Part shown: in pieces, positions 10,941 through 58,152 of the stretch
Layout of the letters: each line of letters begins with the position of its first letter
Numbering within the stretch: position 1 is the stretch's first letter
Assembly (NCBI GenBank): GCA_002440745.1
Contig: DJVB01000008.1
Span: forward strand, 17,070-81,069
Source of the DNA: Bacteroidales bacterium UBA6267
Lineage (GTDB): Bacteria > Bacteroidota > Bacteroidia > Bacteroidales > UBA1556
DNA: 64,000 nucleotides
Reading direction: 5' to 3'
The notes under the pieces: generated by a model
What the model was told of the DNA's origin: nothing
The model's input: only the letters and a program-made list of their open reading frames with translations
Database searches by the model: none
Program-made: the position numbers and the translations under genes

Positions 10941-12620
10941 CTATAAATTTGGCAAATCGAACCAAAATTTTGAACCTACACCAACTTCGGATGAAAAGCT
11001 TATAGTGCCGCCCATCAGTTCAACAAATCCTTTCGAAATGCTAAGCCCTAATCCGGTACCTTCTCTGAAATTGGTCTCTTCCGCTTGACGGAATCGCTCA
11101 AAAATGAAGAATTGTTTATCTTCCGGAATGCCCCGACCAGTGTCGCTAACATAAAAATAATAGGAATTTGGATGTTTCTCAACACCAATTTCCACATGAC
11201 CCGAGTCGGTATATTTTAAGGCATTCTTAATCAAGTTTATAAGCACCTCATAGATTTTATCCTTATCGGTTTCGAAAGTGGTTTGCTTCGTGATTCCTAA
11301 GGTGGACACACGTAATTCTATTCCTTTTGTTCGGGCTTCTAAACTGAAAAATTGGTACAATTCGTCCAAAAGTTCATAGATAATAATTCGAGTTTTTGTA
11401 ACCGTAAATTGTCCGGCTTCAATTTTTGAAATGTTTATCAACTCGTTAATTAAATTCAATAACCGCTTGCCACTTTTCTCTATCACATCCACATAAGTAA
11501 GATATTCCTCTCTTTCCAAATCTTCGGTTTTCATCAGTCCGGCAAAACCCAAGATTCCATTCATCGGAGTTCTGATTTCATGACTTAGGTTAGCGAGAAA
11601 CACCGATTTTAACCGGTCGCTTTCCTGAGCCTTTTCTTTGGCATAAGTCAGTTCATCTTCATATTCTTTGAGTCTGGTGATATCGTGCAAGCTTCCTAAG
11701 AGTTGATTAGGTTTGCCCTCATTATCATTAGTAATGCAAAAACTTCCACTAAGCCATTTGTAATCGCCTGATTTGCTTACGATTTTAAAATCTTTTTCCA
11801 CAGCTGCTGAACCTTCATTATGGGCGAATAAAACCTCTTTTACCACATTTTTAAAGCCGGATTGGTAATCGGGATGAATGAGTTTTAAATATTCTTCCGG
11901 GTCTAAGCTTATCATTTCTGAAGTAGAGTAACCTAAGATATCAAATAGCTTTGGGCTAATATACTTGAAATAATTGGTATGTAGGTCGAAGTAGAAAAAA
12001 ATATCGTGGGAATTCTCAACAATCTGCCTGAATTTTTGTTCGCTCTTGGCAAGTAATGAAGATTCAACTTTTAGCTTTTCTTCAATTATTTTTTTGTCAG
12101 TAATATCAATTATTCCCAATCGGTATTCGAAATCACCGGACGACAAATGCTTTTTAATGCCATGAATATTGGTATAAATCCTTTCTTTTTCATTCAATTT
12201 CAACGCAAGCTCCGTTTGTAGTGAGCGATCGTTTGCAAATAATTCTTTGTGAAAAAAGAAGAATGTATCTTGAAAATCAGGTGCAATGTGTTTTGTAAAA
12301 CTTGTGCCGGCTAGTTTAGCAGGAATAGTCCCCAACATGCCGGCAATGGTATAGTTAGCCTCTTTTATACGTAGGTTGCTATCTAAAAGGATATATCCAG
12401 TAGGCGCAAGATGGAATAGATCGTGATATCTGTCTTTAATTAATTCTAATTCGGCTTGGGAAGAGATTAATTCAATGTTTTGCTGCTCCAATTCTACTTG
12501 ATAAATGGATAACTCTTCAATCAAACTTTTTATGTCTTTTTCGAAAAGGGATGGATTAAGCCCTTGAATTTCAATTTTCTTTAAGGCATCCTCCCGCAGC
12601 CTGTTTAATTTCTCATTCAT
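10941..12620 (-). CDS. PAS-domain sensor histidine kinase (cytoplasmic)
   Basis: Coiled coil and two PAS-like modules, then H-box LANLSHEIRTPMNGILG, N-box LINLIKNALKYT, DTGRGIP, GTGLGLS. No TM segment seen. Confidence 0.85.
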   Translation of the reverse strand: MNEKLNRLREDALKKIEIQGLNPSLFEKDIKSLIEELSIYQVELEQQNIELISSQAELELIKDRYHDLFHLAPTGYILLDSNLRIKEANYTIAGMLGTIPAKLAGTSFTKHIAPDFQDTFFFFHKELFANDRSLQTELALKLNEKERIYTNIHGIKKHLSSGDFEYRLGIIDITDKKIIEEKLKVESSLLAKSEQKFRQIVENSHDIFFYFDLHTNYFKYISPKLFDILGYSTSEMISLDPEEYLKLIHPDYQSGFKNVVKEVLFAHNEGSAAVEKDFKIVSKSGDYKWLSGSFCITNDNEGKPNQLLGSLHDITRLKEYEDELTYAKEKAQESDRLKSVFLANLSHEIRTPMNGILGFAGLMKTEDLEREEYLTYVDVIEKSGKRLLNLINELINISKIEAGQFTVTKTRIIIYELLDELYQFFSLEARTKGIELRVSTLGITKQTTFETDKDKIYEVLINLIKNALKYTDSGHVEIGVEKHPNSYYFYVSDTGRGIPEDKQFFIFERFRQAEETNFREGTGLGLSISKGFVELMGGTISFSSEVGVGSKFWFDLPNL

Positions 12621-12627
12621 GGCTCAT

Positions 12628-15600
12628 TTATTTTGGTTCGTCAACTTCCTCAAAAATAGTATATACCTGATATGGGTTTTGTTGGCCTTCCTGAAATAGT
12701 GGTATTGCATCGATTTTTATCCACACATATTTGGATAGTTTTGGGTTATAAACCCCCATAATACTGTTTTTAATTTCTAAACCGGTACGAAGAGCGACCA
12801 TTGCGGGATGTTCGCTACCCGGAAAAAAGGTTTTATCAGCTTTTAACGGCTTCCATTCTTCGGAGGCAGAGGTGCGAGATTTCATTTCTTCCAGACTAAC
12901 TCCTAAGATGCGCTCAGCGGCAGGATTGGCATTTACCAATTGTCCGTCACCGTTTTGAAAAACAATTCCCTTATTGATGCTGTTGAATAGCAATAAGTAT
13001 TTGTCTTCAAACGCATTAGCCTTTCTTTTTTCTATGTTAAGAACTTCCTGCTGTTCCATTTCGTGGGAAATATTGATAACAATTCCGGTCAATAATTCCG
13101 GTTTTCCGTTTTTGTCCCGCTTCACTACCTTACCTTTGTCTCTATACCACACAAAATGTCTGTCTTTGTGGCGAATGCGATATTCAATAATGTAGGAATC
13201 CTTTTTTCCCGAAAGATGATCACGCATTGCGTCCATGGCTTTTTCGTAGTCATCTTCATGAATTAAACTTGTCCACCACTCAAAACCATCCCCAACCTGA
13301 TTTTTAGTGTAGCCAAGCATGGTGTATTTGCCTTCACCGGTCAGCACTCTGTTTTGTTTCATGTCCCATTCCCACCACGACATTTCACCGGCATTTAGGG
13401 CATAATCTAAACGATCGGTGGTCTGCTGAAGTTTAGCTTGATACTCTTTAATATTACTGATTTCAATAAATAAGATTATTATTCCATCAATCGCATTTTC
13501 AATAGTTCGGTAGGGTAAAATTCGCATCAAAAACCAATGTCCATTATCGTCCTGAATTTCATGTTCAATGGTTACCAAACGATCGGCTGCTTTTTTTACA
13601 TCTTCCACAAAGTTTTTATACAAATTACCAAAACTCAGATGTTGGATTGGACGGCCAATATCAATGGGTAAGATATTGGTTAGGCGACTGGCGACGTCAT
13701 TTATTTTTCTGATGCACAACGATTTATCTAAATACAAGTTGCCTAAGTGGGTGTTTTTTAATAAGTTATCGAAATCGGAATTCAACTCGGTTAGTTCGTC
13801 AATCTTCCGAAGATGTTCGCTATTGACCGTATATAACTCTTCATTAACCGATTGTAATTCCTCATTCGTACTTTGTAGCTCCTCATTCGATGCTATTAGC
13901 TCCTCGTTGCTCGATTGCAACTCTTCGTTGCTTGTTTCAAGTTCTTCAACTGTCGCTTGCAAACTTTCGCTTTTAACTTGAAGTTCTCTTTCTAATTCTT
14001 CAATGCGTTCCTGATACTGAGTGTTAATATTGATTTTCTCACTTGGAACTTTTTTCTGCTCCTTCTTTTCAACTTCGATAAAACTGATTAAGAAGTAGGA
14101 TTCATCTAATTGAGAATCAGAGATATACTTGCATTTTATGGAAAGAAGAGAATTCCGGCTTTCCAAGGAAATATTGTCAAGTGTAATTTCATTTCTCGTT
14201 TTTTCAGTCCTTCGGATGAGGCTGCTCAAAGTTACGGATAAATCTTTTGGCAACATTTTTAACAAGTTAAAACTGACATGACCTATCGGAATATTCAGGT
14301 AATGGCTAACATTGTGAATCGTGTGCAAAACATTATACTGGTCGTCAATTATTATTGAAGGAGGAAGATAATCATGCAAAACCTCATTAAAGATTCGTTC
14401 CACAAAATTATTTCTTGATTTATTTGATCGGTAAATGGAAGATCCTATTAAATCCGATCTGGTTTTTGCTGTAGTATTGATGCCAATTGTGTTAAAAAAT
14501 CCTGGTTTATAGGATGTTATCTTTTTATAAATCTTGGCTTTTTGATCGATAACTTGGAAACCTTCTGCCATATTTCCAAGCGATTCGCTCGACCCTAAAA
14601 GCATCAATCCGTTTTGGTTTAAGCAGACGTGGAATGTGGAGATTATTTTTTGTTGGACATCATTATTCAAGTAGATGAGCAGATTTCGGCACGAAATAAG
14701 GTCAAGTTTCGAAAAAGGCGGGTCGTTGAGAATATTGTGTTGTGCAAATATTATCATGCTTCTAATGCTCTCAATTATTTGATAGCCACGTTCTTTCCTG
14801 GTGAAGTATTTCACTAATAAATCTGTAGGCACATCGGAAGCAATATTGTCGGGATAAAGACCTGTTCCGGCAAAATCAATCGATGATTTGTCTAAATCGG
14901 TTGCAAAGATTTTAACGTCCTTTTGTATGTGATTTTCAATTAAATGGTCTTTGATAAGCATAGCTATGGTATAAGCCTCCTCGCCGGTTGAGCAGCCTGC
15001 TACCCAAACTCTTAACTCTTTCTTTCCTTGATGCTCTTCAATTAGTTTTGGTAAAATTTTAGTTTTAAACTTGATAAAAGTTGCTTCATCTCTGAAAAAT
15101 CGGGTAACTCCAATGAGTAGCTCATTGAAGAGTATGGATATTTCTTTTTGATTTCCATCTAAAAACTTGATGTAATCTTCAATTTTGTCAAATCGATTGA
15201 TGCTTATGCGTTTTTCAAGTCTTCGATGAATAGTATTTTCTTTATAGTTCGCAAAATCAACTTGTTTGCTTTCTTTAAGAATGTCGATAATTCGTTCTAA
15301 ATGATTCATTTTGCCATCGAGCAAACTCTCTAATTTTCGACTTTGCCGGATGAGAGGATGTTTTATATACTGCAAAAGCTCAGCGGCTAAATCAAATGGA
15401 TTCGATACAAAATCAATCATGCCTGTCGAAATGGAGCTTTTTGGCATTCCGTCAAACTTAGCCGAACGATCGTCTTGAACCATAGTCATGCCGCCAAATT
15501 CTTTGATTGCCCGCACCCCCAAAGTTCCATCCGAACCGGTGCCGGATAAAATGATGGAAATGGCATTTTTTTGCTGGTCCTGAGCCAATGACCTAAAGAA

Positions 15601-15960
15601 GATATCAATTGGAAGATTTAAAAACCTTTTGTCCGAAATTTCACTAAGCAATAATTTTCCCTCCCTGATGGTCATGTTCATCTTTGGTGGAAGAAGATAG
15701 ATATTGTTTTTTTCGACTAACATGTCGTTTTGAGCCACATGAATTGGGATTGAAGTGCATCTTGCAAGCAGTTCATTCATAAAACTTTTATAGTCAGGCG
15801 ATAAATGTTGAATGATGACGAATGCCGCTCCCGGATCCGGATCCATATTAGTGAAAAATTCTTGAAGTGCTTCTAGTCCCCCTGCTGATGCGCCAATTCC
15901 AACTACAGGATATGGCAATTGATGTAAGGGTTCTTCCGATACTGAAATTGATTTAGCCAT
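12628..15960 (-). CDS. CheB methylesterase / CheR methyltransferase fusion protein with PAS domains
   Basis: CheB-like VVGIGASAGGLEAL..IIQHLSP..GTGSDG. CheR-like SAM motif VWVAGCSTGEEAYTIAM..ISCRNLLIYL. NEEL heptad coiled coil, then two C-terminal PAS modules. Confidence 0.85.
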   Translation of the reverse strand: MAKSISVSEEPLHQLPYPVVGIGASAGGLEALQEFFTNMDPDPGAAFVIIQHLSPDYKSFMNELLARCTSIPIHVAQNDMLVEKNNIYLLPPKMNMTIREGKLLLSEISDKRFLNLPIDIFFRSLAQDQQKNAISIILSGTGSDGTLGVRAIKEFGGMTMVQDDRSAKFDGMPKSSISTGMIDFVSNPFDLAAELLQYIKHPLIRQSRKLESLLDGKMNHLERIIDILKESKQVDFANYKENTIHRRLEKRISINRFDKIEDYIKFLDGNQKEISILFNELLIGVTRFFRDEATFIKFKTKILPKLIEEHQGKKELRVWVAGCSTGEEAYTIAMLIKDHLIENHIQKDVKIFATDLDKSSIDFAGTGLYPDNIASDVPTDLLVKYFTRKERGYQIIESIRSMIIFAQHNILNDPPFSKLDLISCRNLLIYLNNDVQQKIISTFHVCLNQNGLMLLGSSESLGNMAEGFQVIDQKAKIYKKITSYKPGFFNTIGINTTAKTRSDLIGSSIYRSNKSRNNFVERIFNEVLHDYLPPSIIIDDQYNVLHTIHNVSHYLNIPIGHVSFNLLKMLPKDLSVTLSSLIRRTEKTRNEITLDNISLESRNSLLSIKCKYISDSQLDESYFLISFIEVEKKEQKKVPSEKININTQYQERIEELERELQVKSESLQATVEELETSNEELQSSNEELIASNEELQSTNEELQSVNEELYTVNSEHLRKIDELTELNSDFDNLLKNTHLGNLYLDKSLCIRKINDVASRLTNILPIDIGRPIQHLSFGNLYKNFVEDVKKAADRLVTIEHEIQDDNGHWFLMRILPYRTIENAIDGIIILFIEISNIKEYQAKLQQTTDRLDYALNAGEMSWWEWDMKQNRVLTGEGKYTMLGYTKNQVGDGFEWWTSLIHEDDYEKAMDAMRDHLSGKKDSYIIEYRIRHKDRHFVWYRDKGKVVKRDKNGKPELLTGIVINISHEMEQQEVLNIEKRKANAFEDKYLLLFNSINKGIVFQNGDGQLVNANPAAERILGVSLEEMKSRTSASEEWKPLKADKTFFPGSEHPAMVALRTGLEIKNSIMGVYNPKLSKYVWIKIDAIPLFQEGQQNPYQVYTIFEEVDEPK
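13825..13950 (-). repeat. Six tandem 21-nt (heptad) repeats encoding VEELETS NEELQSS NEELIAS NEELQST NEELQSV NEELYTV
   Basis: Codon-by-codon reading of the minus strand inside the CheB-CheR gene. Confidence 0.9.
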
Positions 15961-16174: not shown

Positions 16175-16966
16175 TTAATAAACTAATTGATCAGCAACAA
16201 GTTCGGCTATGTCTTTATTGAGGGTAACTTCTTCTCTATTTTTATATTTAATACCATCCGTCATCATGGTCATACAAAACGGACAAGCTGTGGCTATAAT
16301 TTTCGGGTTTAGTCCAATCGCTTCTTCCGTGCGTTCAATGAAAACTTCTTTATTTCCCTTTTCTGCCTCTTTAAACATTTGCCCTCCACCTGCACCGCAG
16401 CATAAAGCAAAACTTCTGTTTCGTGGCATCTCACTTAAGTTATAGCCTAAGGCTTTGAGGATATTGCGTGGAGGTTCGTATATTTTATTTGCTCTGCCCA
16501 AATAACACGGGTCGTGATAAGTCAATATTTCGGGATTAGAGGTAGGCTTTAGTTTGATTTTTCCGGATTGAATATTATTCCAAATAAATTCTGTATGGTG
16601 TGTAACTTCGTAATTTCCACCTAATTCCGGATACTCATTCTTAAGAACATTATAATCGTGAGGGTCGCAGGTTATAATTTTTTTAACGCCATAACCATTC
16701 AAAACTTCAATATTCATTTGAGCTTGCATTTGAAAAAGCATCTCATTCCCCGAACGCCGTGCAATATCTCCGCTGTCGGTTTCTTCAATTCCCAGCACTG
16801 CATAATCTGTTTTCAGATGATATAAAATCTTCACAAATGATTGAGTGACTTTTTTATAACGGTCGTCGAATGCTCCGGCGCTTCCAACCCAAAATAAATA
16901 TTCCGGTGTTTTTCCTTCGGCAAATAAGTCAGCCATTTGGGGTACTTCTATCTTAATCGTTTCCAT
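16175..16966 (-). CDS. CCG-domain (HdrB/HdrD C-terminal-like) Fe-S protein
   Basis: Two cysteine-rich CCG-type motifs: YHDPCYLGR..ALCCGAGGG..ACPFCMTMM, and a degenerate N-terminal copy. Confidence 0.7.
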   Translation of the reverse strand: METIKIEVPQMADLFAEGKTPEYLFWVGSAGAFDDRYKKVTQSFVKILYHLKTDYAVLGIEETDSGDIARRSGNEMLFQMQAQMNIEVLNGYGVKKIITCDPHDYNVLKNEYPELGGNYEVTHHTEFIWNNIQSGKIKLKPTSNPEILTYHDPCYLGRANKIYEPPRNILKALGYNLSEMPRNRSFALCCGAGGGQMFKEAEKGNKEVFIERTEEAIGLNPKIIATACPFCMTMMTDGIKYKNREEVTLNKDIAELVADQLVY

Positions 16967-16971
16967 TGTAA

Positions 16972-18270
16972 CTACTTTTGAATAAATATTTCATCGGCCC
17001 ATTTCATGCGGTCTTCCTGCGAAAATTGCCACGGGGCACCGTTGTTTTCAATGTTTTGAAAAATGCTGTTTAACCCTGCCGGTGCTGCAGATTCCTCCAT
17101 CACCAAATACCTCCGCAAGGAAATAATTATGTCAGGATGGTTCATATTTATCGGACATTCTTGCGCACAGGCATTACAAAGCGTACAAGCCCAAATTTCC
17201 TCTTCAGAAATATAGTCTCTCAACAAAGATTTGCCATCGTCAAAGGATTTGTCCTTTAGAAGTTGAGGCCCTTTTTCTTTCATGCGTGCACGAAAATCAA
17301 TCATTAACTTTCTGGGAGATAATAGTTTACCGGTAATATTTGCCGGACAAACCGAGGTGCAACGCCCGCATTGAGTGCAGGCTAAACTGTCGAGATAGTT
17401 TTTCCATGTGCCATCTTCCACATCTTTCATCCCAAATCGACCTATCTCTTGGTCAGTTTCAGCAGCACCAGATTCCGGATTTATCATCGACCTTACTTCA
17501 TTTTCAATTATCGGCATATTGTCAATATAGCCCAAGGGTTTAAGTTTAGTTAGAAATACATTGGGAACCGACATAAACACATGAAAATGCTTGGAATATG
17601 GTAAAATATTGGCAAAAAGAAATATTAATAAAATATGCCCCCACCAATTTGCCTCATGCAAGATCAGGGTTGTTTCGTAATCAACATTGATAAAAAAACC
17701 TGCTAAGTAACTCGATACCGGATAAAATCCTTGAATTTCATGGGTGGTCGAAAGCAGATAAAAAGTGTTCATTCCAAGCAGTGTCACCATTAACAAGCCA
17801 ATTAAACCTAAAGCAACATTTGCATCTTGATGGGAAATTTTTTTCATTTCCACGCCTTCAAATCGCTTTACTTTTAAGATGTTTCTGCGGATGAGAAAGA
17901 TAAGGATTGCCACAAGTATTATCAATCCAAAAAGGTCACCACCGGCCATTAAAATAGTATAAAAAAACCCGAGGAACGACAAAATTCTTTCTGTTCCAAA
18001 CAATCCATCGACAATCATTTCGATGCTCCCAAAAAGGATTACAATGAAGCCCCACCAAACTAAAGCGTGGAGCATTCCGATCACCGGACGCCTTAGGATT
18101 TTGGTTTGACCAATAGCGACTTCTAAGGTCAAAATCAGTCTTTTGCCAATTTCCTTTATAGGAAATGCAGGTTTTAATAATTTGAAATAATCAAAAATTC
18201 GCTTTATTGTCCATGCGAAAAATCCCATGGCAACAAGGAGCGTTAAGGCAAATATTATTTGTTTTATCAT
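16972..18270 (-). CDS. Integral-membrane 2x[4Fe-4S] ferredoxin-domain protein (DsrM/NarI-like TM region fused to HdrC/DsrK-like dicluster domain)
   Basis: About 5-6 hydrophobic helices, then CTQCGRCTSVCP and CTLCNACAQECP. The track start is TTG 18285. ATG at 18270 (MIKQII) is preferred. Confidence 0.65.
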   Translation of the reverse strand: MIKQIIFALTLLVAMGFFAWTIKRIFDYFKLLKPAFPIKEIGKRLILTLEVAIGQTKILRRPVIGMLHALVWWGFIVILFGSIEMIVDGLFGTERILSFLGFFYTILMAGGDLFGLIILVAILIFLIRRNILKVKRFEGVEMKKISHQDANVALGLIGLLMVTLLGMNTFYLLSTTHEIQGFYPVSSYLAGFFINVDYETTLILHEANWWGHILLIFLFANILPYSKHFHVFMSVPNVFLTKLKPLGYIDNMPIIENEVRSMINPESGAAETDQEIGRFGMKDVEDGTWKNYLDSLACTQCGRCTSVCPANITGKLLSPRKLMIDFRARMKEKGPQLLKDKSFDDGKSLLRDYISEEEIWACTLCNACAQECPINMNHPDIIISLRRYLVMEESAAPAGLNSIFQNIENNGAPWQFSQEDRMKWADEIFIQK

Positions 18271-18506
18271 AATTATAAAAATCAAGTAATCAGAGTAAAT
18301 TCTGCGACTAATAAATACATCCTGTGCTGTCGCTTATTGCCTGCAAATATATTATTTTTTTGCGATTGGGTATTCTAAATATGCTTTTGGTATTTGATGA
18401 GTACGTAATTTATATCTATTCCAGTCAATGGAGGAGAAATCTAAATATTAGGAGAAGAAACGGAAATATTTTTGCAAACTTCCATCAACCTGAATTACCT
18501 GAAGTC

Positions 18507-23935: not shown

Positions 23936-23970
23936 AAAAAAGCCGGCAATTTGAAAAAAGCCGGCTTTTG
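23936..23970 (-). terminator. Rho-independent terminator after the cytochrome c gene
   Basis: Two self-complementary GCCGGC hexamers separated by 12 nt. The minus-strand hairpin is followed by TTTTTTATTG. Confidence 0.65.
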
Positions 23971-23986: not shown

Positions 23987-24898
23987 TTATCTTTCGCGAA
24001 GATTATAAATTCGAAAAATTTGAAATACTGCCCACCCAATAGTTAACCAAACACCCAGAACCACAAGAATATAGGTGAGTTTCAACCATAAAGGTGCATT
24101 ATCACGTGGCCCCCATAATGAAGGTTCATCAAGAGGATTTTTGTAGTGTGTCTTTTCACCAAACTTTACCTCTTTAGAAGCCGAAATTGTGGTTCCGTCA
24201 ACGGTTGCTATCACTGTAACATAACCATTTGTGTCGGCAGGTAAGTCTAATGGAAATTGTTCTACCGCAACACTCTGTCCATCAGTTTTTTTGGTGTTAA
24301 TCAGAAAATCGCCAAAAGCTCTTTTTACATAAATATTCACTTTCACGTTTTTTGCGTTAGCCGGATTGCCCATTTCATCAACGGCTTGAAGCTGAACTTT
24401 GATATTTCCATTGCTTGTATCGAAATCGAGGGTTAGACCTTTTATCGTTCCAACAAATTTCTCGGCAGCCGGTGCCGCAGAAATAGATGCAGGTGGTTGA
24501 TATTCAGGATAAAAGGTGCGAATATAAGCAACTAATTTCCATCGCTCATCTTCCGATAGTCGGTCGAAAGGCGGCATTCCGGTGGCGGCATGTCCAAGGG
24601 TGATTTTATAGAAAAATTCACCATCAGAATTTTTCTTTTGAATCTCTTGACTTCCAAGGTTTGGCGATAAGGGTAGTTGCCGTGTATTGGTAGGCACAAC
24701 CGACATTTCGTTGTGACACATTTTACATTGTGTGTTAAAAATAGCCTCGCCAGCTTCCTGATTAGCTTGGTCGAATGGAATTTTTAATGTTTCAGCTTTT
24801 TGCTCGTCACTAATGCCCCAATCTGTTTGAGCATTCAAACCGATAGTGTTCCAAAAAATGAAAACAGCTATTGCAGCAAATTTAAGTATTGTATTCAT
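23987..24898 (-). CDS. Monoheme cytochrome c with Ig-like middle domain and C-terminal TM anchor
   Basis: Signal peptide from the internal ATG (MNTILKFAAIAVFIFWNTIGLNAQ). The track start at 25006 overlaps the NrfD gene. Single CKMCH heme site with distal GMPPF. C-terminal helix LWLKLTYILVVLGVWLTIGWAVF. Confidence 0.7.
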   Translation of the reverse strand: MNTILKFAAIAVFIFWNTIGLNAQTDWGISDEQKAETLKIPFDQANQEAGEAIFNTQCKMCHNEMSVVPTNTRQLPLSPNLGSQEIQKKNSDGEFFYKITLGHAATGMPPFDRLSEDERWKLVAYIRTFYPEYQPPASISAAPAAEKFVGTIKGLTLDFDTSNGNIKVQLQAVDEMGNPANAKNVKVNIYVKRAFGDFLINTKKTDGQSVAVEQFPLDLPADTNGYVTVIATVDGTTISASKEVKFGEKTHYKNPLDEPSLWGPRDNAPLWLKLTYILVVLGVWLTIGWAVFQIFRIYNLRER

Positions 24899-24917
24899 AA
24901 TCTGTTTCTTAGAATAT

Positions 24918-26261
24918 TTATAAATCTTTTTCAATATCAACACCTTTTTCATGCGCAGTTTCCCAAATGGGAACCACTGGGAATAATTTGGCCAAAATGG
25001 CAACAATTAACACTGCTGTTGCTATGACTCCAATCGTTATGGTTACTTCCATACCTGTAGGGTTGTATTCGGTAAAATCTTTTGGCACGTTCTGAATGGG
25101 CAAATGGGCATGAATAAGTGTTGGAACAATGATTATCACCCTTTTATACCAAGCTCCAATTACTAATGAAGCTCCTATTAGCATCAATGGGAATGGCTTT
25201 CTCATTTTTTTGAATAGACCTAAAACTATTGGAAGGATTAAACCAAAAGTTTGGGTGAGCCAAAACATGAGTGAGTATTCACCATTAAATAAGGTGTGAA
25301 GATGTATTGCATCATGAGTTTTCATTTTATAACCAGGAACCAAAAATTCATTTAAGTTGAAATAAAGATAAACCAATGAAACTAAAACCATCAATTTTCC
25401 CATTTTATCAAAATGGTAGTCGGTTATATAATCTTGAAGTTTGTAGCCACGTCTGATAAAATACATGGCCACTAATACGGCACCTGAGCCTGCAACGAAT
25501 GCTCCAGAAACATAATAAGGTCCAAAAATGGTGGAGTCCCAACCAGCGCGTAGTGTGAGGGCAGATAGCCAAGATGTTACGGTGTGAATCGACATTGCAA
25601 CTGGTATAATGAGAATCAACAACACGCGAAGTGTCCGATGAAGAATTTGATATTGTTTTGGTGTGCCAACCCAACCTAAGGACAGGATATTATAAAGCAT
25701 CCATTTCCACTGTGGGACTTCGCCTTTTAAATGATTGCGCATAATTCCTAAGTCAGGAAGCATTGGCAGCAGAAGCAACAAAGTGCTGATAGCCACATAA
25801 GTAGTCACAACAGTAACGTCCCAAAAAATGGGTGACTGGAATCTGAAATGTAGGAATACATTCAGCAATCTATCCGGGCGACCCATATCGATGACGATAA
25901 TTATACCAGCCATCATCACAAAGGCTAAAGCAATCATTTCGGCAATTCTCCCGACCGGCGTTATCCATTTTTGTCCAACAAGTCCGACAACTGCAGAAAT
26001 AAGCATACCCACAAGAGCTACAGCTACGAAAAATACAAATGAAGCAATGTAAATTCCCCAACTAACATAATCTGTCATGGCTGTTACGCCTAATCCATCT
26101 CGTAATTGGAAGTAGTAGGCATATAAGGCTGCAGCTATTAATGTTAATAAACTTACAATGAGGGCATTATAACCCCAATACTTGGTTTTGACAGGCGTGA
26201 GTAAATCTTCTTTTATTTTCTCAAAAACAGCCTTCTCATCTTGATTTCTAATCTCCGACAT
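24918..26261 (-). CDS. NrfD/PsrC/ActC-like polytopic quinone-interacting membrane subunit
   Basis: 447 aa, about 10 hydrophobic helices, NrfD-family look. Sits between the Fe-S and cytochrome c genes. Confidence 0.75.
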   Translation of the reverse strand: MSEIRNQDEKAVFEKIKEDLLTPVKTKYWGYNALIVSLLTLIAAALYAYYFQLRDGLGVTAMTDYVSWGIYIASFVFFVAVALVGMLISAVVGLVGQKWITPVGRIAEMIALAFVMMAGIIIVIDMGRPDRLLNVFLHFRFQSPIFWDVTVVTTYVAISTLLLLLPMLPDLGIMRNHLKGEVPQWKWMLYNILSLGWVGTPKQYQILHRTLRVLLILIIPVAMSIHTVTSWLSALTLRAGWDSTIFGPYYVSGAFVAGSGAVLVAMYFIRRGYKLQDYITDYHFDKMGKLMVLVSLVYLYFNLNEFLVPGYKMKTHDAIHLHTLFNGEYSLMFWLTQTFGLILPIVLGLFKKMRKPFPLMLIGASLVIGAWYKRVIIIVPTLIHAHLPIQNVPKDFTEYNPTGMEVTITIGVIATAVLIVAILAKLFPVVPIWETAHEKGVDIEKDL

Positions 26262-26298
26262 TATTTAATGTTTTTAAGGTTACAAATTATTTAATGTA

Positions 26299-27246
26299 TT
26301 AACCATGATGGGGTTTATCGGGCTCATCTTCGCCGAGATAATTTTTGCCGTCATAATTGTATTTAATTAACCGGTCTCTTGGTGGCAAGTAATAAACCGA
26401 TGGTTTTGTGCCTAATTCCGGAAGTAATGTGTAAGCACCTTTTTCTTCTAATAAAGTACTAAGTCGTGTGCTTTCCTTACTTGTGCCGTTTGTAACAACA
26501 TCTTCATTGGCATCGCCAAACCAGTAAACTCCGTTAGGACAAGCAGATACGCAATATGGAAGCTTACCAATACGCAGGCGGTCGGCACTGAATAAACATT
26601 TGGAAATGGTGCCTTTTTTCTGAGGAACATTCAGCTCGACATCGTAAATACGGTCGGTATCTTCTTCATAATGTTTGGGTTCGGTCCAATTGAAGATACG
26701 CGCTGAATATGGGCAAGCTGCAATGCAAAAACGGCATCCGATACAGCGCTCATTATCAATTAAAACGATTCCGTCCTGACGTTGGAATGTTGCATCTACC
26801 GGACAAACTTTAGTACATGGAGGATTGTCGCAATGCTGACAAGGCTTCGGCATGAAATAATGACCGGTTCGTTCATCGTTTTCCATACGCAACACATTGA
26901 TATGATGCTGCTCAGGTTTTAAATGGTGAGCTGTTTGACAAGCTGCCATACACTGCCGTGCATTCTGACATTTAGCTAAGTCAATAACCATGACGAATTT
27001 TTTTCCGGGAATTCCTTCTCTGCCTCTTTTTTGAAGCTCGGTTAAGTGGACATCCATTTTTGAAACATCTACCTCTACCCATTCTCCTTCTGCATTCAAA
27101 AACCGGAATTTTTTGTTAGGGTCGGTGGTATTGCAAGAACTTACTACCCCCATTGCACTCACAACTCCTAAGGTTCCTAAGGTAACTCCAAACTTTTTCA
27201 GGAAGCCCCTTCGTGTTGTGGATACAGTTGTATTGTTTTGATCCAT
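26299..27246 (-). CDS. Tat-exported 4Fe-4S dicluster protein (NrfC/PsrB/ActB2-like)
   Basis: Twin-arginine signal TTRRGFLKKFG. Cluster motifs CQHCDNPPCTKVCP, CIGCRFCIAACP, C..CVSACP, plus a degenerate first motif CQNARQCMAAC. Confidence 0.8.
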   Translation of the reverse strand: MDQNNTTVSTTRRGFLKKFGVTLGTLGVVSAMGVVSSCNTTDPNKKFRFLNAEGEWVEVDVSKMDVHLTELQKRGREGIPGKKFVMVIDLAKCQNARQCMAACQTAHHLKPEQHHINVLRMENDERTGHYFMPKPCQHCDNPPCTKVCPVDATFQRQDGIVLIDNERCIGCRFCIAACPYSARIFNWTEPKHYEEDTDRIYDVELNVPQKKGTISKCLFSADRLRIGKLPYCVSACPNGVYWFGDANEDVVTNGTSKESTRLSTLLEEKGAYTLLPELGTKPSVYYLPPRDRLIKYNYDGKNYLGEDEPDKPHHG

Positions 27247-27538
27247 AGTAAAATATGATGTTTAGTTTGTACTGTTTTCTGTTTAAATTAAATAAAGTAA
27301 TTGATTGCGTAAATATATACAGTTATCTTTATTGTCCATACGTTTAATTGAAATTCAGAATCATTTTAAATAGCATGTCGCCATTTAATTGAGAAGTAGG
27401 CCGGTATTTAGTTTTTTTTGATATAAAAACTAAAGATTCTGCTCAAGAAGAAATCGCTGATTTACGAGAATCAATCGATTTAATAACACTCTTGAAAGCA
27501 GAACCCTTGAAAAGAAATTTTTATCGGAAACGAGATTG

Positions 27539-34193: not shown

Positions 34194-34266
34194 TTGCCCG
34201 ATCAGGGGTCGAACCTGAACTCTTCTGATCCAGAATCAGACGTGTTGCCAGTTACACCATCAGGCA
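34194..34266 (-). tRNA. tRNA-Gln (anticodon CUG)
   Basis: Hand-folded 73-nt cloverleaf. Acceptor TGCCTGA/TCGGGCA (U1-A72). D arm GTGT/ACAC with a GG loop. Anticodon arm TCTGA-TTCTGGA-TCAGA. T arm TCAGG-TTCGACC-CCTGA. No encoded CCA. Confidence 0.9.
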
Positions 34267-41051: not shown

Positions 41052-41906
41052 TTATCTTGCAAAACCATCTACAGTGATAATGATGATTATGAAGAGGACA
41101 TAAATATTTATCTTCATGAAATAACTCATTGGTTTAAAGCTTGGTGCATTTAGTTTTAATAAATTCAAAAATGCAAATATGAGCCAAAAGGAGAGAATAA
41201 AAATTGCATAAGAAGCCGTTGAAGTGTCAACCACATTGAAAAGGGGCAACATAAGTGCAGCAATAGCTGTTGAAACAGTCCAAAGGAAAGTCACGCGTTT
41301 GATATGGTTTTCGGAGTAGAAACGGTGTAAACTCGGGTAACCTGCCGATTCATAATCTTGACCATATTTAAGCATAAGTAACCAAAAATGAGGTACTTGC
41401 CATATAAAAAAGAAGAAGGCCATGATTAGTGCTCTTGGGTCGGTGATTTCACCGCCACCGGCCACCCAGCCTACCAAAGGAGGAAGAGCGCCTATGACGG
41501 AGCCCGGAATAACAGCAAAAGGGGTTATTTTTTTTAATGGCGTATAGATGAAATTATACCAAACCAAAGCTGCTAAGCCAAGACTCATAGCCAACCAGCC
41601 GCTATTGATTAGGATTGTTGCCGAGCCTAAAAGCGAAAAGCCAAGTCCTAATAACAATGCTCCTGAAGGGCTTATCCTTCCGGATGGTATTGGACGTTTT
41701 GATGTCCGCTCCATAACTGCGTCAGTTTTGTATTCCTGATATTGATTGATAATTGCCGACCCGCAAGCCAAAACAAAAAGGCCTAAAACTGTCGCAATCA
41801 TATCGGTATTGAATTCATTTGCAGCCAAAACATATCCTGTGATGGTAGTCAGCATTACGGCAAAAGTTATTTTTATTTTGCTTAACTCAAGAATGGTCTT
41901 CAACAT
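41052..41906 (-). CDS. cyoE: Protoheme IX farnesyltransferase (heme O synthase)
   Basis: UbiA-family polytopic protein with NQYQEYKTDAVMERT and YTPLKKITP motifs. Lies 1 nt after the coxII stop. Confidence 0.85.
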   Translation of the reverse strand: MLKTILELSKIKITFAVMLTTITGYVLAANEFNTDMIATVLGLFVLACGSAIINQYQEYKTDAVMERTSKRPIPSGRISPSGALLLGLGFSLLGSATILINSGWLAMSLGLAALVWYNFIYTPLKKITPFAVIPGSVIGALPPLVGWVAGGGEITDPRALIMAFFFFIWQVPHFWLLMLKYGQDYESAGYPSLHRFYSENHIKRVTFLWTVSTAIAALMLPLFNVVDTSTASYAIFILSFWLIFAFLNLLKLNAPSFKPMSYFMKINIYVLFIIIIITVDGFAR

Positions 41907-41907
41907 G

Positions 41908-42822
41908 TTATTTCAAGGTTTTAATGTATTCAATCATTAGTTCTAACTCTTTCTGACTCAATTTGTCTTTATAAGCCGGCATTATATTGCTGTATCCTTT
42001 AACTACATCTGCAGCAGGGTCTTCAATTGATTTTATGATATAAAGTTCATCAGCAGTTACATTTTTGACAATTCCATTGGATTCAATTTCAGTGTTTCTT
42101 CCAAAAAGTCCTTTGAAACTTGGTCCTACCATTGCAGAGCCATCCACACTGTGGCAGCTCATACAAGCATTTTGTTTCATCAATGCTAAACCGGCTTCAG
42201 GCCCTTCTAATGAGTTTTGTGTTGTGTCGTTATACCATTTATCAAAATCTTTTTGCTCAATAACGTCCACCTTGCTAACCATATAGGAATGACGGTCGCC
42301 ACAATATTCGGCGCATAAAATATTATATGTTCCTATCTGTTGACCAATAAACCACATATAGTTAGTATCTCCGGGCATCAAATCTTCCTTTACACGGAAT
42401 GCAGGGATATAAAGACTATGAATAACATCCTCTGAAAGCAAGTCAAGTTTGACAGCTTTGTCGATTGGAATCACTAAAGTGTCTGTTTTCTTACCATTTT
42501 CATACTCAAAAGTCCACGACCACATTCTGCCTGTGGCTGTAATCTTCATGGCGTCTTCGGGAACTTTCCTCATGTCGGTATAGCCTGACCAGCCATAATA
42601 AAACATCACCAAAACCAAAATTGTTGGGACCACAGTCCAAAGAATTTCTAAACCAACATGGCCATGAATATCTTTAGCAACCGGATTTCTTTTATGATGA
42701 TAACGAACCATGAAATAAATCATCAAAGCGGTAAGTCCGATTAGAAAAAATAAGGAAATGCCGATGATTATGGCAAAGGTTAAATCGACATCGTTGGTAA
42801 AATTTGAAGCATTTGTAAACAT
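41908..42822 (-). CDS. coxB: Cytochrome c oxidase subunit II with fused C-terminal cytochrome c domain (caa3 type)
   Basis: Two N-terminal TM helices, CuA site CAEYCGDRHSYM, C-terminal heme c site CMSCH. Confidence 0.85.
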   Translation of the reverse strand: MFTNASNFTNDVDLTFAIIIGISLFFLIGLTALMIYFMVRYHHKRNPVAKDIHGHVGLEILWTVVPTILVLVMFYYGWSGYTDMRKVPEDAMKITATGRMWSWTFEYENGKKTDTLVIPIDKAVKLDLLSEDVIHSLYIPAFRVKEDLMPGDTNYMWFIGQQIGTYNILCAEYCGDRHSYMVSKVDVIEQKDFDKWYNDTTQNSLEGPEAGLALMKQNACMSCHSVDGSAMVGPSFKGLFGRNTEIESNGIVKNVTADELYIIKSIEDPAADVVKGYSNIMPAYKDKLSQKELELMIEYIKTLK

Positions 42823-42846
42823 AAATCTTTTTCAGTTTATTCGTTT

Positions 42847-43134
42847 CTATCTAAGAGCATAATCGATTCCGAGCAAGACTATAAAGCTCAGAAACAGCAA
42901 TATAACAATCCCAATAAATATTTTATAGATGATGTGGTCGTATTTTATGTGCATAAAATTTCGAACCACAAAAGTTGCCTTGATGGTGGCGATGAACATT
43001 GCTACCGAAACAGCCAAAACTGTTGTTCCTCCAGTAGCGTAACTTGCCCATATAGTGATGATAGTAAGCGCCATAAGGGCTGCAAATGTGATTAAATCAG
43101 ATTTATAGCTTGGACTATGTGAATGTTTGCTCAT
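42847..43134 (-). CDS. Cytochrome c oxidase subunit IV-like small membrane protein
   Basis: About 95 aa with three predicted TM helices directly after subunit III. The internal ATG (MSKHSH) is preferred, because the track start at 43185 overlaps subunit III. Confidence 0.55.
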   Translation of the reverse strand: MSKHSHSPSYKSDLITFAALMALTIITIWASYATGGTTVLAVSVAMFIATIKATFVVRNFMHIKYDHIIYKIFIGIVILLFLSFIVLLGIDYALR

Positions 43135-43145
43135 AATATTTCGTA

Positions 43146-43766
43146 TTAATGGAGTAAATAAAATAGTGGGAACAGGTAAATCCATATTAAATCAACCAAA
43201 TGCCAGTATAAGCCGCCATTTTCGTGAAAAGTATAATTGTCCTTGGTAATTTTTCCGTTGATGATTTTTGCAATGACTATTGCTAAGATGATTGCACCAA
43301 CAACCACATGTAAACCATGCAATCCGGTCATAAAGTAGTAGAGAAAAAGGAACATTCCTTCGCCATGCTGAAGATTATTAAATAGGTCAGCGCCCATCAC
43401 AAGGCCATGATGGATATGTTCATTCCATTCAAAAAACTTATTTACCATAAAGGCTAATGCTAAAGCAATGGTGATGAAAAGCAATAATACTGCAATATTA
43501 TCTTGGTCTTTCTTCATGGCAGTAATGGAGAGTGCAACCGTTAGACTTGAAGTAATTAGTATTACTGTGTTAGCTGCACCAAGTGTGATGTCCATGTGCT
43601 CAGCAATAATCCTAAACTCTTCAAAATACTTAAAGCGATAGATTGCATAAACTAAAAACAAGCCTCCGAATAAAAGAATTTCAGTAAATAGGAAGAGCCA
43701 CATTCCAAGCTTACTTCCTTCATCGTCTCGGTTATGACCGGAGATTGGTACTTTATAATATCCCAT
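43146..43766 (-). CDS. Cytochrome c oxidase subunit III
   Basis: Five-helix short subunit III look (GMWLFLFTEILLFGGLF, HGLHVVVG, YWHLVDLIW). Confidence 0.8.
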   Translation of the reverse strand: MGYYKVPISGHNRDDEGSKLGMWLFLFTEILLFGGLFLVYAIYRFKYFEEFRIIAEHMDITLGAANTVILITSSLTVALSITAMKKDQDNIAVLLLFITIALALAFMVNKFFEWNEHIHHGLVMGADLFNNLQHGEGMFLFLYYFMTGLHGLHVVVGAIILAIVIAKIINGKITKDNYTFHENGGLYWHLVDLIWIYLFPLFYLLH

Positions 43767-43769
43767 AAT

Positions 43770-45416
43770 CTAGTGGTCTAAAGGTTTTTGTTCAACTTCA
43801 TTTATTTTCTCAAGTAGCGAAAAATCGTAAGGGCCATTTTCTGACAGGATAAAAGGTCTGTCGAAATTGTGCAATGGAGGAGGAGAAGGCACTTGCCACT
43901 CTAATGTTACCCCATTCCATGGATTTCTGGGTGCTATTTCGCCTTTTCTTGCCGACCGTATTAAATTGTAAATCATCAATAGAATGCCTAAGATTAGAAT
44001 CCATGAGCCTACGGTTGCAACTTTATTCAAAAACTCAAACTGAGGTAAATAATCATAATATCTTCTTGGCATTCCTTTTACGCCAACAGTAAGCATGGCA
44101 CCATATAAGATATTGAATCCAACGAATGTAAATCCTAAGGCCCAATAAGCTAATTTTTGATTATACATCCTGCCCCAAATTTTTGGGAACCAATAATGCA
44201 GTGCACCTAAGAAAACGAATATGGTTCCTCCAAACATGGTATAATGGAAATGGGCAACAATATAAGTCGTGTCGTGAACATGTACATCGGCAGCTAAAGC
44301 ACCATTGATTAATCCCGTTAATCCACCAATGAGAAAGTTGAAAATGAAGGCTGTGGACCAAAGTAAATTTGGTGTGATATAAATGGAGCCTTTATAAAGT
44401 GTTGCTATCCAGTTGAAAACTTTAATAGCTGTCGGAATAGCGACTAAGAAGGTTATAAATGAAAATACAACCCGCGCTTCATCGCTCATCCCCGATGTAA
44501 ACATGTGATGCCCCCAAACGAAATATCCTAAGAAAGCAATTGCCATAGATGAAAGAGCGATGGCTTTATAGCCAAAAATTGTCCGTTGTGCAGAAGTGGG
44601 AATTACTTCAGAAACGATACCCATTGCAGGCAGAATCATTACATAAACCACCGGATGGGAATAAATCCAAAACAAATGCTGGTATAAAACCGGATCTCCA
44701 CCGAGAGCAGGGTCGAAAAGTCCGATTCCAAAGGTGCGTTCCATTACTACCATGAGCAGGGTAATTCCTACAATTGGAGTTGCTAAAAGCTGAATCCAGG
44801 CGGTTGCGTATAAACCCCATGCAAAAAGTGGCATTTTAAACCATGGCATTTGAGGTGCACGAAGTCGATGTATGGTTACGATGAAATTTAAACCTGTCAG
44901 AATACTCGAAAAACCAAGAACAAATGCAGCTAAGAGAAGCATCGAAACATTGGTATCGGAGGTAACGGAATAAGGCGCGTAAAATGTCCAGCCGGTGTCG
45001 GCAGGGCCATTTCCAAACATCAAAGTGCCAAGTGCCATCAATGCTCCAATAATGTAAAGCCACCACGAAAACAAGTTAAGACGGGGTAAAGCTACATCGT
45101 CTGTCCCAATCATTATTGGCAGAAAAAAGTTCCCGAAAACCGCCGGAATGCTGGGGATTATCACCAAGAAAATCATGATTACACCATGGAAGGTGAAAAC
45201 CTGATTATAGGTTCTGGGATCCATAACCTGACCGCCGGGAGAAAAAAGCTCTAACCGCATTAGGAAACCTAAAGCTACTCCGACAAGAAAAAATAACGAA
45301 ATTGAGTAAAGGTAGAGAAGTGCGATTCGTTTGTGGTCCAAGGTGAAAATCCATGAAAACAAACCTCGTTTGGCTTCATAGAAGTTCAGATTGCTATCGA
45401 TTGCGTGACTGTCCAT
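43770..45416 (-). CDS. ctaD: Cytochrome c oxidase subunit I
   Basis: Heme-copper oxidase signatures WFFGHP-type region (LFWIYSHPVVY), HHMF, VHDTYIVAHFHY. 548 aa. Confidence 0.9.
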   Translation of the reverse strand: MDSHAIDSNLNFYEAKRGLFSWIFTLDHKRIALLYLYSISLFFLVGVALGFLMRLELFSPGGQVMDPRTYNQVFTFHGVIMIFLVIIPSIPAVFGNFFLPIMIGTDDVALPRLNLFSWWLYIIGALMALGTLMFGNGPADTGWTFYAPYSVTSDTNVSMLLLAAFVLGFSSILTGLNFIVTIHRLRAPQMPWFKMPLFAWGLYATAWIQLLATPIVGITLLMVVMERTFGIGLFDPALGGDPVLYQHLFWIYSHPVVYVMILPAMGIVSEVIPTSAQRTIFGYKAIALSSMAIAFLGYFVWGHHMFTSGMSDEARVVFSFITFLVAIPTAIKVFNWIATLYKGSIYITPNLLWSTAFIFNFLIGGLTGLINGALAADVHVHDTTYIVAHFHYTMFGGTIFVFLGALHYWFPKIWGRMYNQKLAYWALGFTFVGFNILYGAMLTVGVKGMPRRYYDYLPQFEFLNKVATVGSWILILGILLMIYNLIRSARKGEIAPRNPWNGVTLEWQVPSPPPLHNFDRPFILSENGPYDFSLLEKINEVEQKPLDH

Positions 45417-45420
45417 AAGT

Positions 45421-46236
45421 TTAATTTATTTGGTTTTTTTGGATGTTTTTCTTCCGTTTTCTTTCTAAAATAATCATCGAAGATAACAGTAAGGCCGCTA
45501 AGAAAATAATCGCACTTCCTGCTACTTTGGTGATATTGAAGACGTATTTTTTTCCTTCAGGATCATAAGAAAAGCAATAGTTTAGTACTTTGTTGATGGT
45601 AGGGCCTGAACGTCCTTCAGCAGCTTCAATCAACGCCAACTTGAGATCGAACGGATTATAATATTCTCCATTTAAATAACGTGTGATTTTCCTCTCAGGG
45701 CTGAGCACGATTAAGGCTCCGGGATGGATATATTGATCGCCTACTTTTTTAACCTTAAACCCTGTTTGATTTAAAAGACGGGCAATATTTGCCGAGTCGC
45801 CGGTTAGAAAACGCCAACCATGCTCAACATCCTGCGAGGCATTTATTTTTGCATAGTGATTCTTCTTTTCCGATGCTACTTCATAGTTTTCGGCTGGTGC
45901 AAAACTTACCGTCAGCACATCGTATTCGGTGCCTAAAACCATTTCCGTTTGTTTTACTGCGTCCGAAACGCCGTTCATTAAAATGGTGCAAATCCCCGGA
46001 CATTTGTAGTAAACCAAACTAAGAGCGGTGGGTTTTTTAACCAACTCATCCAATCGAACCGGATTTCCTTTTTCATCGAAAAGAATAATGTCGCCATCAA
46101 CGACACTGTTCAACTGTTCGTAAATACCCAATTCTTGTGAGGGTTCTTCTTGCTTTGGAACTTGATATTGTCCGACAGATATTTGCCAGATAATCAATAA
46201 ATTGAAAGTTAAAAAGGTCTGTAAAATTCGTCTCAT
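45421..46236 (-). CDS. SCO/SenC-family copper chaperone with C-terminal TM anchor
   Basis: Thioredoxin-fold CPGICTILMNG (CxxxC) and a downstream His, as expected for SCO. First gene of the oxidase operon. Confidence 0.75.
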   Translation of the reverse strand: MRRILQTFLTFNLLIIWQISVGQYQVPKQEEPSQELGIYEQLNSVVDGDIILFDEKGNPVRLDELVKKPTALSLVYYKCPGICTILMNGVSDAVKQTEMVLGTEYDVLTVSFAPAENYEVASEKKNHYAKINASQDVEHGWRFLTGDSANIARLLNQTGFKVKKVGDQYIHPGALIVLSPERKITRYLNGEYYNPFDLKLALIEAAEGRSGPTINKVLNYCFSYDPEGKKYVFNITKVAGSAIIFLAALLLSSMIILERKRKKNIQKNQIN

Positions 46237-58080: not shown

Positions 58081-58152
58081 GCTGCTCTTAACCAAACTCA
58101 CATTGATTTTTATCGACTGCAACTAACGATGAAATATTAGCCTACTCAAACT

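Follow-up and report, generated by a model that had tools for sequence, protein, structure and literature searches.

The Cbc complexes of Geobacter are assemblies of the cytochrome-NrfCD type, in which NrfC and NrfD proteins are combined with a cytochrome and no molybdoenzyme is present. It is established that NrfCD pairs without a molybdenum (Mo) subunit can act as quinol:cytochrome modules, a stand-alone NrfCD being known from Melioribacter (PMC3534657), and the NhcABCD and Hmc complexes of sulfate reducers are likewise cytochrome-NrfCD complexes (PMC8076601). An architecture of cytochrome c, iron-sulfur (Fe-S) protein and 10-helix membrane subunit is also that of DsrJOP (PMC10861901), and comparable parts occur in alternative complex III (ACIII; ActABCDEF, PDB entries 6BTM, 6F0K, 6LOD and 8K9E). 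Here we analyze a 64,000-nucleotide (nt) stretch of DNA from Bacteroidales bacterium UBA6267 (assembly GCA_002440745.1, contig DJVB01000008.1, positions 17,070 to 81,069; hereafter, the window), which carries on its minus strand a three-gene operon, here termed the triad. Its products are an NrfC/DsrO-like periplasmic Fe-S protein exported by twin-arginine translocation (Tat) (subunit 1; 315 amino acids (aa), 26299..27246), an NrfD-family membrane protein with ten helices and a presumed quinol site (subunit 2; 447 aa, 24918..26261) and a monohaem class I cytochrome c fused to an immunoglobulin (Ig)-like domain and a transmembrane anchor (subunit 3; 303 aa, 23987..24898). Taken together, the sequence data make it probable that the triad is a minimal membrane-bound menaquinol:cytochrome c oxidoreductase and a functional stand-in for complex III. 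No description of the triad family, or of its link to oxidases, was found in the searchable literature.

A first-pass annotation, made from the letters of the window alone, had described three genes separated by gaps of 37 and 19 nt, and the list of open reading frames and the Pfam matches agree with it on all coordinates. Subunits 1 to 3 match, respectively, Fer4_11 of the 4Fe-4S dicluster family (3e-22), NrfD (1.6e-29) and Cytochrome_CBB3/Cytochrom_C (1e-10), and no Molybdopterin match was returned by the Pfam scan of the triad. The same annotation had remarked on the lack of a catalytic subunit, and indeed the proteins scanned in the 64-kb window gave no match to a molybdopterin, ActB, multihaem or Rieske/cytochrome b subunit. 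The order NrfC-NrfD-subunit 3 is kept in all 36 related loci recovered with the NrfD protein, and among these 36 loci the triad has no conserved neighbour that encodes a molybdopterin, ActB-like or multihaem subunit. The triad thus has the make-up of a generic NrfCD module, that is, a haem-free NrfD protein and a Tat-exported ferredoxin of the four-cluster type, adjacent in 36/36 loci.

The identity of subunit 2 bears most directly on the presumed reaction. The protein has ten hydrophobic segments and its AlphaFold model ten long helices (pTM 0.82), which matches the earlier estimate of about ten. In a phmmer search of all PDB sequences it retrieved only ActC, over nearly its full length (E 1e-44 to 1e-39, 27-29% identity), and, weakly, ActF, while PsrC went undetected even at E<=10. 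Foldseek comparison of the model led to the same proteins, with a TM-score of 0.85 to the ActC chains 6btm_C, 8k9e_C, 6lod_C and 6f0k_C and of ~0.57 to ActF. The quinol-site residues named for R. marinus ActC (PMC8076601) were mapped onto subunit 2 through the phmmer alignment, and their invariance was judged across 40 orthologues. Ser164 and Asp169 of ActC correspond to Ser143 and Asp148, both of them invariant, and His139 corresponds to Asp125, also invariant, at the protonation position, where Asp is likewise carried by DsrP, QrcD and HybB (PMC8076601).

The phylogenetic placement of subunit 2, which the first-pass annotation had proposed as a check, was carried out on the relatives of the protein; among 1.8 billion cluster representatives searched, 250 clusters were recovered at E<=1e-30. 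Neighbour joining of 112 full-length NrfD-type sequences, four ActC chains among them (100 replicates), puts subunit 2 in a clade of the Bacteroidales type with 92% bootstrap support, and this clade is nested with a Flavobacteriaceae type and several fusion proteins (bootstrap 74-76%). ActC forms a separate clade (bootstrap 76%), and 0/100 replicates united the window sequence with ActC while leaving the fusion proteins out. The scores of subunit 2 against the NCBIfam models of DsrP (138.5; cut-off 350), HybB (62.3; cut-off 450) and QrcD (45.1; cut-off 570) are all below the respective cut-offs, and 20 representatives taken from across the tree reached 49-149 bits with the DsrP model, the relation of the family to true DsrP being given here by scores of hidden Markov models (HMMs) only. 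Since it lies outside the ActC clade and below the cut-offs for DsrP, QrcD and HybB, subunit 2 is not inside a characterised reductase clade, the placement that the first-pass annotation had named as one that would refute its reading. Because of its separate clade and the sub-cut-off DsrP scores, we place it, as far as sequence can tell, in a so far uncharacterised branch within the 10-helix ActC/DsrP group.

Subunit 1 carries the Tat motif TRRGFLK, already singled out in the first-pass annotation, and its RRxFL core is kept in 39/40 orthologues. Alignment to PsrB reveals 14 Cys residues, invariant in 40/40 orthologues, which fall into four motif groups. Groups II (C136/C139/C144/C148) and III (C168/C171/C174/C178, with the spacing C-x2-C-x2-C-x3-C-P) have their full four Cys, and the second Cys is absent from group I (C93-x2-Ala96-x2-C99-x3-C103; Ala in 38/40 orthologues) and from group IV (C217-x2-Ser220...C232-x3-C236). 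Position 220 is Ser in 27/27 Bacteroidales-type sequences and Cys in 13/13 Flavobacteriaceae-type sequences. The degenerate first motif, C93-x5-C99-x3-C103, had thus been correctly noticed at first reading, but the Bacteroidales type has two such three-Cys sites and not one. A CxxCxxC motif that has lost its second Cys is classically indicative of a [3Fe-4S] site. The motif groups were assigned to clusters after the structures of NarH and PsrB, and on that basis the membrane-proximal clusters FS4 and FS3 would have four Cys each and the distal clusters FS2 and FS1 three Cys each. The two distal sites are probably [3Fe-4S] or otherwise higher-potential clusters. The best NCBIfam match of subunit 1 is DsrO (187.8 bits, cut-off 200), the scores for TtrB (145.6, cut-off 416), QrcC, NrfC and ArrB being far under their cut-offs, and its best match in the PDB is PsrB (2vpw_B, E 3e-31). 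A reading of subunit 1 as a Tat lipoprotein, anchored through Cys38 after the signal, was dropped because a Cys is found there in only 14/40 orthologues.

The open reading frame of subunit 3 runs from 25006 to 23987, and the ATG at 24898, which is supported by homologues, gives a product of 303 aa. Initiation at another in-frame ATG, 54 nt further upstream at 24952, would extend the gene 35 nt into the NrfD gene. The longer start is the annotated one in a single homologue (P0125), and most homologues use the shorter one, which yields a normal signal peptide. The haem ligands, C58-K-M-C61-H62 and M108 of a GMPPF motif, are invariant in 15 homologues. In the AlphaFold model (pLDDT 83) a signal peptide precedes the cytochrome c domain, which is of class I and spans residues 28-130. 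An Ala/Pro linker connects this domain to a beta-sandwich of seven strands (151-245), and last comes a C-terminal helix (270-302), which hydropathy also identifies as a transmembrane anchor. The invariant ligands and the model therefore uphold the monohaem CKMCH cytochrome with Ig-like middle domain and C-terminal anchor that had been read from the sequence at the outset. Foldseek returned only generic Ig-like domains and cytochrome c552, and a search of PDB sequences gave generic class I matches only, the match to ActE being non-significant (E 0.73).

The way in which these parts are joined varies among relatives. The Bacteroidales arrangement, which is that of the window, has separate genes for NrfC, NrfD and the cytochrome-Ig-anchor protein. 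In the Flavobacteriaceae the protein at the position of subunit 3 has no CxxCH motif, and a separate monohaem cytochrome c of 132 aa follows. In distant relatives (35-45% identity) the Ig domain and anchor are found at the C-terminus of the NrfD protein itself. Six clusters at 50% identity have such a fusion (P0138, P0144, P0147, P0148, P0172 and P0217; 620-740 aa), their Ig-anchor part being matched by HMM over the full length of the module (E 1e-23 to 1e-33). Genomic context was read for two of the six, and in both (L046:6693-10458 and L047:188-3538) an NrfC gene lies upstream and a gene for a small monohaem cytochrome c downstream. Four modules in three states of fusion show, at the level of sequence, that the parts belong together.

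The neighbourhood of the triad links it to terminal oxidases. The window itself contains, at 41052-46236 on the minus strand, an A-type haem-copper oxidase operon with genes for SCO1, COX1, COX3, COX4, a COX2-cytochrome c fusion and UbiA (haem O synthase) according to Pfam, in agreement with the oxidase 14 kb away to which attention had first been drawn. No haem A synthase gene is present in this operon. Neighbours were counted in 27 Bacteroidales-type loci, the window included. In eight of these (L009, L010, L012, L013, L019, L020, L023 and L031) the series SCO1-COX1-COX3-COX4-COX2(cytochrome c)-UbiA lies directly downstream of the triad on the same strand, at a distance of 12-25 nt in seven loci and of 139 nt in L010, and clustering identifies the six genes as orthologues of those at 41052-46236. 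The oxidase of the window is, hence, likely to be the electron acceptor of the triad in spite of its position outside the triad operon. Instead of a true caa3 oxidase it may be an enzyme of the cc(o/b)o3 type, as found in Desulfovibrio and Melioribacter. Two further loci of the 27 have genes for a CcoI-like Cu-ATPase, a fused CcoNO and CcoP (cbb3 oxidase) directly downstream, three have the CcoI-like ATPase alone, and four have a gene for an unknown 158-aa protein and one for a dihaem cytochrome c, followed in three cases by NarG without Tat motif and NarH, the contig of the fourth (L016) being cut. In independent look-ups of five contigs, the triad heads a full ccoI-ccoS-ccoNO-ccoQ-ccoP-ccoG-ccoH cluster in three (from Labilibaculum, Marinifilum and a third genome of 5.1 Mb) and stands alone in two. 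In Labilibaculum and Marinifilum (L037:5427-8366 and L045:4468-7407) the triad-cbb3 cluster is divergent from cydAB and a DUF4492 gene, which places three oxygen-reducing systems in one region. The cbb3, Cox and bd oxidases are listed for Labilibaculum genomes, for which no complex III is named (PMC5760507).

The first-pass annotation had read the locus as a path from quinol through Fe-S clusters and a tethered cytochrome c to an oxidase, and the conservation of the triad as a unit, the synteny with oxidase genes and the ActC-like character of subunit 2 lend support to such a path, as do the invariant Cys and haem ligands, the fusions of the Ig-anchor part with NrfD and the precedent of other NrfCD pairs. 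The make-up of the triad, its motifs and folds, its conservation and synteny and its states of fusion are seen in the data, while quinol oxidation, the direction of flow, the cluster types and any translocation of protons are inferred. Menaquinol would be oxidised at a pocket of the NrfD subunit on the periplasmic side. Electrons would enter the Fe-S subunit at the two membrane-proximal four-Cys [4Fe-4S] clusters, pass on via the two distal three-Cys sites, and arrive at the His/Met-ligated haem in the cytochrome c domain, which the Ig-like spacer and the packing of the C-terminal helix on NrfD would keep beside the complex. From the reduced haem they could then move on to a caa3-like or cbb3 oxidase through the cytochrome c domains of the latter, the acceptors in some relatives presumably being cytochromes of nitrate or metal respiration.

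The first-pass annotation had further likened the triad to a pared-down ACIII, and this comparison holds in part. The NrfD protein is ActC-like in sequence and fold, with ten helices and the Ser and Asp of the quinol pocket kept, both systems have a Tat-exported periplasmic Fe-S subunit from the same ferredoxin family and a monohaem cytochrome c subunit, the genes of both often adjoin those of caa3 or cbb3 oxidases, and the presumed reaction, from menaquinol to cytochrome c, is the same. The triad, however, lacks the pentahaem ActA, the second NrfD-like subunit ActF and ActD; the operon has a single NrfD gene and a single CxxCH, and no genes for ActA or ActF flank the triad in the 36 loci. ActB, with ~950-1040 aa, joins its Fe-S domain to a large molybdopterin-like ActB1 domain devoid of cofactor, whereas the Fe-S protein of the triad, of 315 aa, can be aligned with ActB over residues ~772-943 only. 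The three-Cys site of F. johnsoniae ActB is the membrane-proximal group III (C-x2-T-x2-C-x3-C-P), while those of the triad are membrane-distal. In addition, His139 and Asp253 of ActC are Asp and Leu in the triad NrfD protein, which forms a clade of its own, and the cytochrome, anchored by its Ig domain and C-terminal helix, is not detectably ActE-like. The triad is a sister lineage of ActC/DsrP, with an Fe-S subunit most like DsrO, and not demonstrably a reduced ACIII.

Its three-part plan, made up of a membrane-anchored cytochrome c, a DsrO-like Fe-S protein and a DsrP-like 10-helix subunit in which the quinone protonation position is occupied by Asp, is shared with DsrJOP of DsrMKJOP. The triad cytochrome, on the other hand, is monohaem with His/Met ligation, and DsrJ is trihaem with a His/Cys haem; the triad is unlinked to dsrMK, dsrAB or dsrC, being tied to oxidases and not to sulfur metabolism, and its scores stay under the NCBIfam equivalog cut-offs for both DsrO and DsrP. 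With the cytochrome-NrfCD complexes it has in common a quinone-reactive module of NrfC and NrfD type, whose partners in electron exchange are c-type cytochromes of the periplasm, but those complexes work with multihaem cytochromes and anaerobic acceptors or donors, whereas the triad family has a single haem, an additional Ig/anchor subunit that occurs in three states of fusion and, in the Bacteroidales, a genomic tie to haem-copper oxidases. PsrABC (2VPZ) provides the best solved match to the Fe-S subunit, and the two systems have Pfam families in common; the triad nevertheless lacks the catalytic subunit PsrA, and PsrC has 8 helices in place of 10. More generally, the Psr/Phs/Ttr systems differ in their Mo subunit, absent from the triad operon, and in an anchor of 8-9 helices as compared with 10, and the Qrc and Hyd-2 systems differ in that the triad NrfD protein stays under the equivalog cut-offs for QrcD and HybB.

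A bolder version of the proposal would make the triad a third, independent complex-III solution after bc1/b6f and ACIII, which would be the sole quinol:cytochrome c link in many facultatively anaerobic Bacteroidales/Marinilabiliales, conserve energy through its ActC-like subunit and use two distal [3Fe-4S] clusters to step electrons up to the tethered haem. We put this version forward tentatively, as the sequence data leave it more doubtful than probable. Several observations also weigh against the simpler reading of the triad as a menaquinol:cytochrome c oxidoreductase that feeds oxidases. The oxidase genes of the window lie 14 kb from the triad, which ends in a terminator of its own, and several relatives (L002, L015, L018, L043 and L044) stand alone. 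Three loci (L014, L021 and L025) have nar genes around the triad, and the Flavobacteriaceae variant lies behind genes that encode a multihaem cytochrome, a protein with an EB_dh domain and a membrane beta-barrel of the DUF5777 family. The nar and multihaem contexts imply that the acceptor is not always an oxidase, and that the module is not oxidase-dedicated. Within the proteins themselves, Asp253 of ActC corresponds to an invariant Leu232 in subunit 2, so that the quinol site is not identical to that of ActC, and the membrane-proximal cluster is a four-Cys one, unlike the [3Fe-4S] cluster of ActB and that of QrcC (PMC6303296 for the latter).

The nitrate-reductase clusters (L014:278-10099, L021:3290-17171 and L025) surround the triad with genes for two NarK-like transporters, the 158-aa protein, a dihaem NarC-like cytochrome c, NarG without Tat motif and NarH. 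In the Flavobacteriaceae loci (L026-L036, e.g. L033:2775-10497) the module is preceded by genes for an MtrC/MtrF-like multihaem cytochrome and an 82-aa Tat-signal protein, and it is tandemly duplicated in L026, L029 and L036; the locus as a whole looks like a trans-envelope electron conduit. Such variety among neighbours, ranging from A-type and cbb3 oxidases to nar genes with a dihaem cytochrome c and to the multihaem/EB_dh/DUF5777 genes of the Flavobacteriaceae, would be expected if the triad were a general periplasmic electron hub, connecting the quinone pool in either direction with whichever c-type cytochromes are present and having no dedicated link to oxygen. The stand-alone loci, the window among them, point the same way, as does the reduction of Fe(III) and Mn(IV) by Labilibaculum (PMC5760507). 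Haem-copper oxidase genes are, however, by far the commonest neighbours in the Bacteroidales-type clade of the window, at operon-like spacing, and we consider a hub of this kind rather unlikely. It differs from the favoured reading in breadth only, the mechanism being the same.

Operation in reverse, as in Qrc, with periplasmic cytochrome c or other donors reducing menaquinone, would fit the four Cys of the membrane-proximal cluster, and the relatives that have Asp where subunit 2 has Asp125, namely QrcCD and HybB, function as quinone reductases (PMC8076601, PMC6303296). Yet no gene for a periplasmic hydrogenase, formate dehydrogenase or other donor is linked to the triad in any of 40+ loci, and the genes that are linked encode electron acceptors (oxidases and nitrate reductase), which makes reverse operation improbable. 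A His/Met class I cytochrome c, moreover, is normally too high in potential for menaquinone reduction, and the score with the QrcD model is 45 bits against a cut-off of 570.

Six kb from the triad, at 16175-18285 on the minus strand, the window has a split pair of the DsrM/DsrK or HdrED type, one member being a 437-aa protein that has membrane helices at its N-terminus as well as two 4Fe-4S motifs, and the other, encoded next, a 263-aa CCG-domain protein. That the triad would be the periplasmic/membrane half of a DsrMKJOP-like complex, working with this pair of membrane-bound Fer4 and CCG-domain proteins in the reduction of a cytoplasmic disulfide or trisulfide, is suggested by the best NCBIfam matches (DsrO, DsrP) and by the parallel with the DsrJOP plan (PMC10861901), but is very hard to credit because the pair, tried as a partner, lies beside the triad in no other locus (singleton clusters), and also in view of both scores being under the cut-offs (187.8 against 200 and, far under, 138.5 against 350), of a cytochrome that is monohaem class I and not a trihaem DsrJ, and of the absence of dsrAB or dsrC from the window.

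As to its expression, the triad operon is closed by an intrinsic terminator at 23936..23969 (minus strand), the hairpin of which (23969-23938) begins 18 nt past the stop codon of subunit 3. It consists of a 10-bp GC-cored stem (AAAAGCCGGC/GCCGGCUUUU), a 12-nt loop and a U-run, and it was missed by a consensus terminator scan because of the length of the loop. RNA folding gives it -16.1 kcal/mol (z -4.26), a value equalled by 0/200 shuffles, and the terminator claimed in the first-pass annotation is thereby substantiated. The promoter presumably lies in the 292 intergenic nt that separate the gene of subunit 1 from ssb (27247..27538, minus strand). A scan for sigma-70-type promoters, the scope of which does not extend to Bacteroidetes promoters, showed no enrichment (13 matches against 11.8 expected from shuffles), and an Rfam scan of the window returned a single tRNA (34194-34266) and no match within the operon. 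A locus from a metagenome-assembled genome of the Bacteroidales (L001) has 98% protein identity with the window. A public metagenome contig (L040:1637-2981; JGI 3300001592 Draft_10000273) has an identical cytochrome gene and an NrfD gene called as two pieces of 169 and 281 aa, a split that is probably an assembly frameshift, given that the gene is intact in the window. Elsewhere in the window, a 1110-aa CheB-CheR fusion with several PAS domains (12628-15960, minus strand) adjoins a PAS histidine kinase (10941-12620, minus strand), and an open frame of at least 1953 codons (58141-64000, plus strand) extends past the window end, its C-terminal part being histidine-kinase-ATPase-like; this accounts for the lack of listed open reading frames in the final 6 kb.

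The Marinilabiliales and related Bacteroidales have cbb3 and caa3-like oxidases, and genome papers name no menaquinol to cytochrome c enzyme for them (e.g. PMC5760507). Placed directly ahead of oxidase operons, the triad is a candidate for this missing step. If the proposal is correct, it would be the smallest known quinol:cytochrome c oxidoreductase and would reduce the functional core of the ACIII/DsrOP family to an Fe-S wire, a 10-helix quinol subunit and one haem. It would offer a simple system in which to test for proton pumping by ActC-type subunits. The metabolic annotation of abundant sediment and gut-related Bacteroidota, in which these genes are now labelled 'polysulfide reductase', would benefit as well. 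In the anaerobe-like Bacteroidales that carry the triad, the task of complex III would then fall to a much smaller set of parts.

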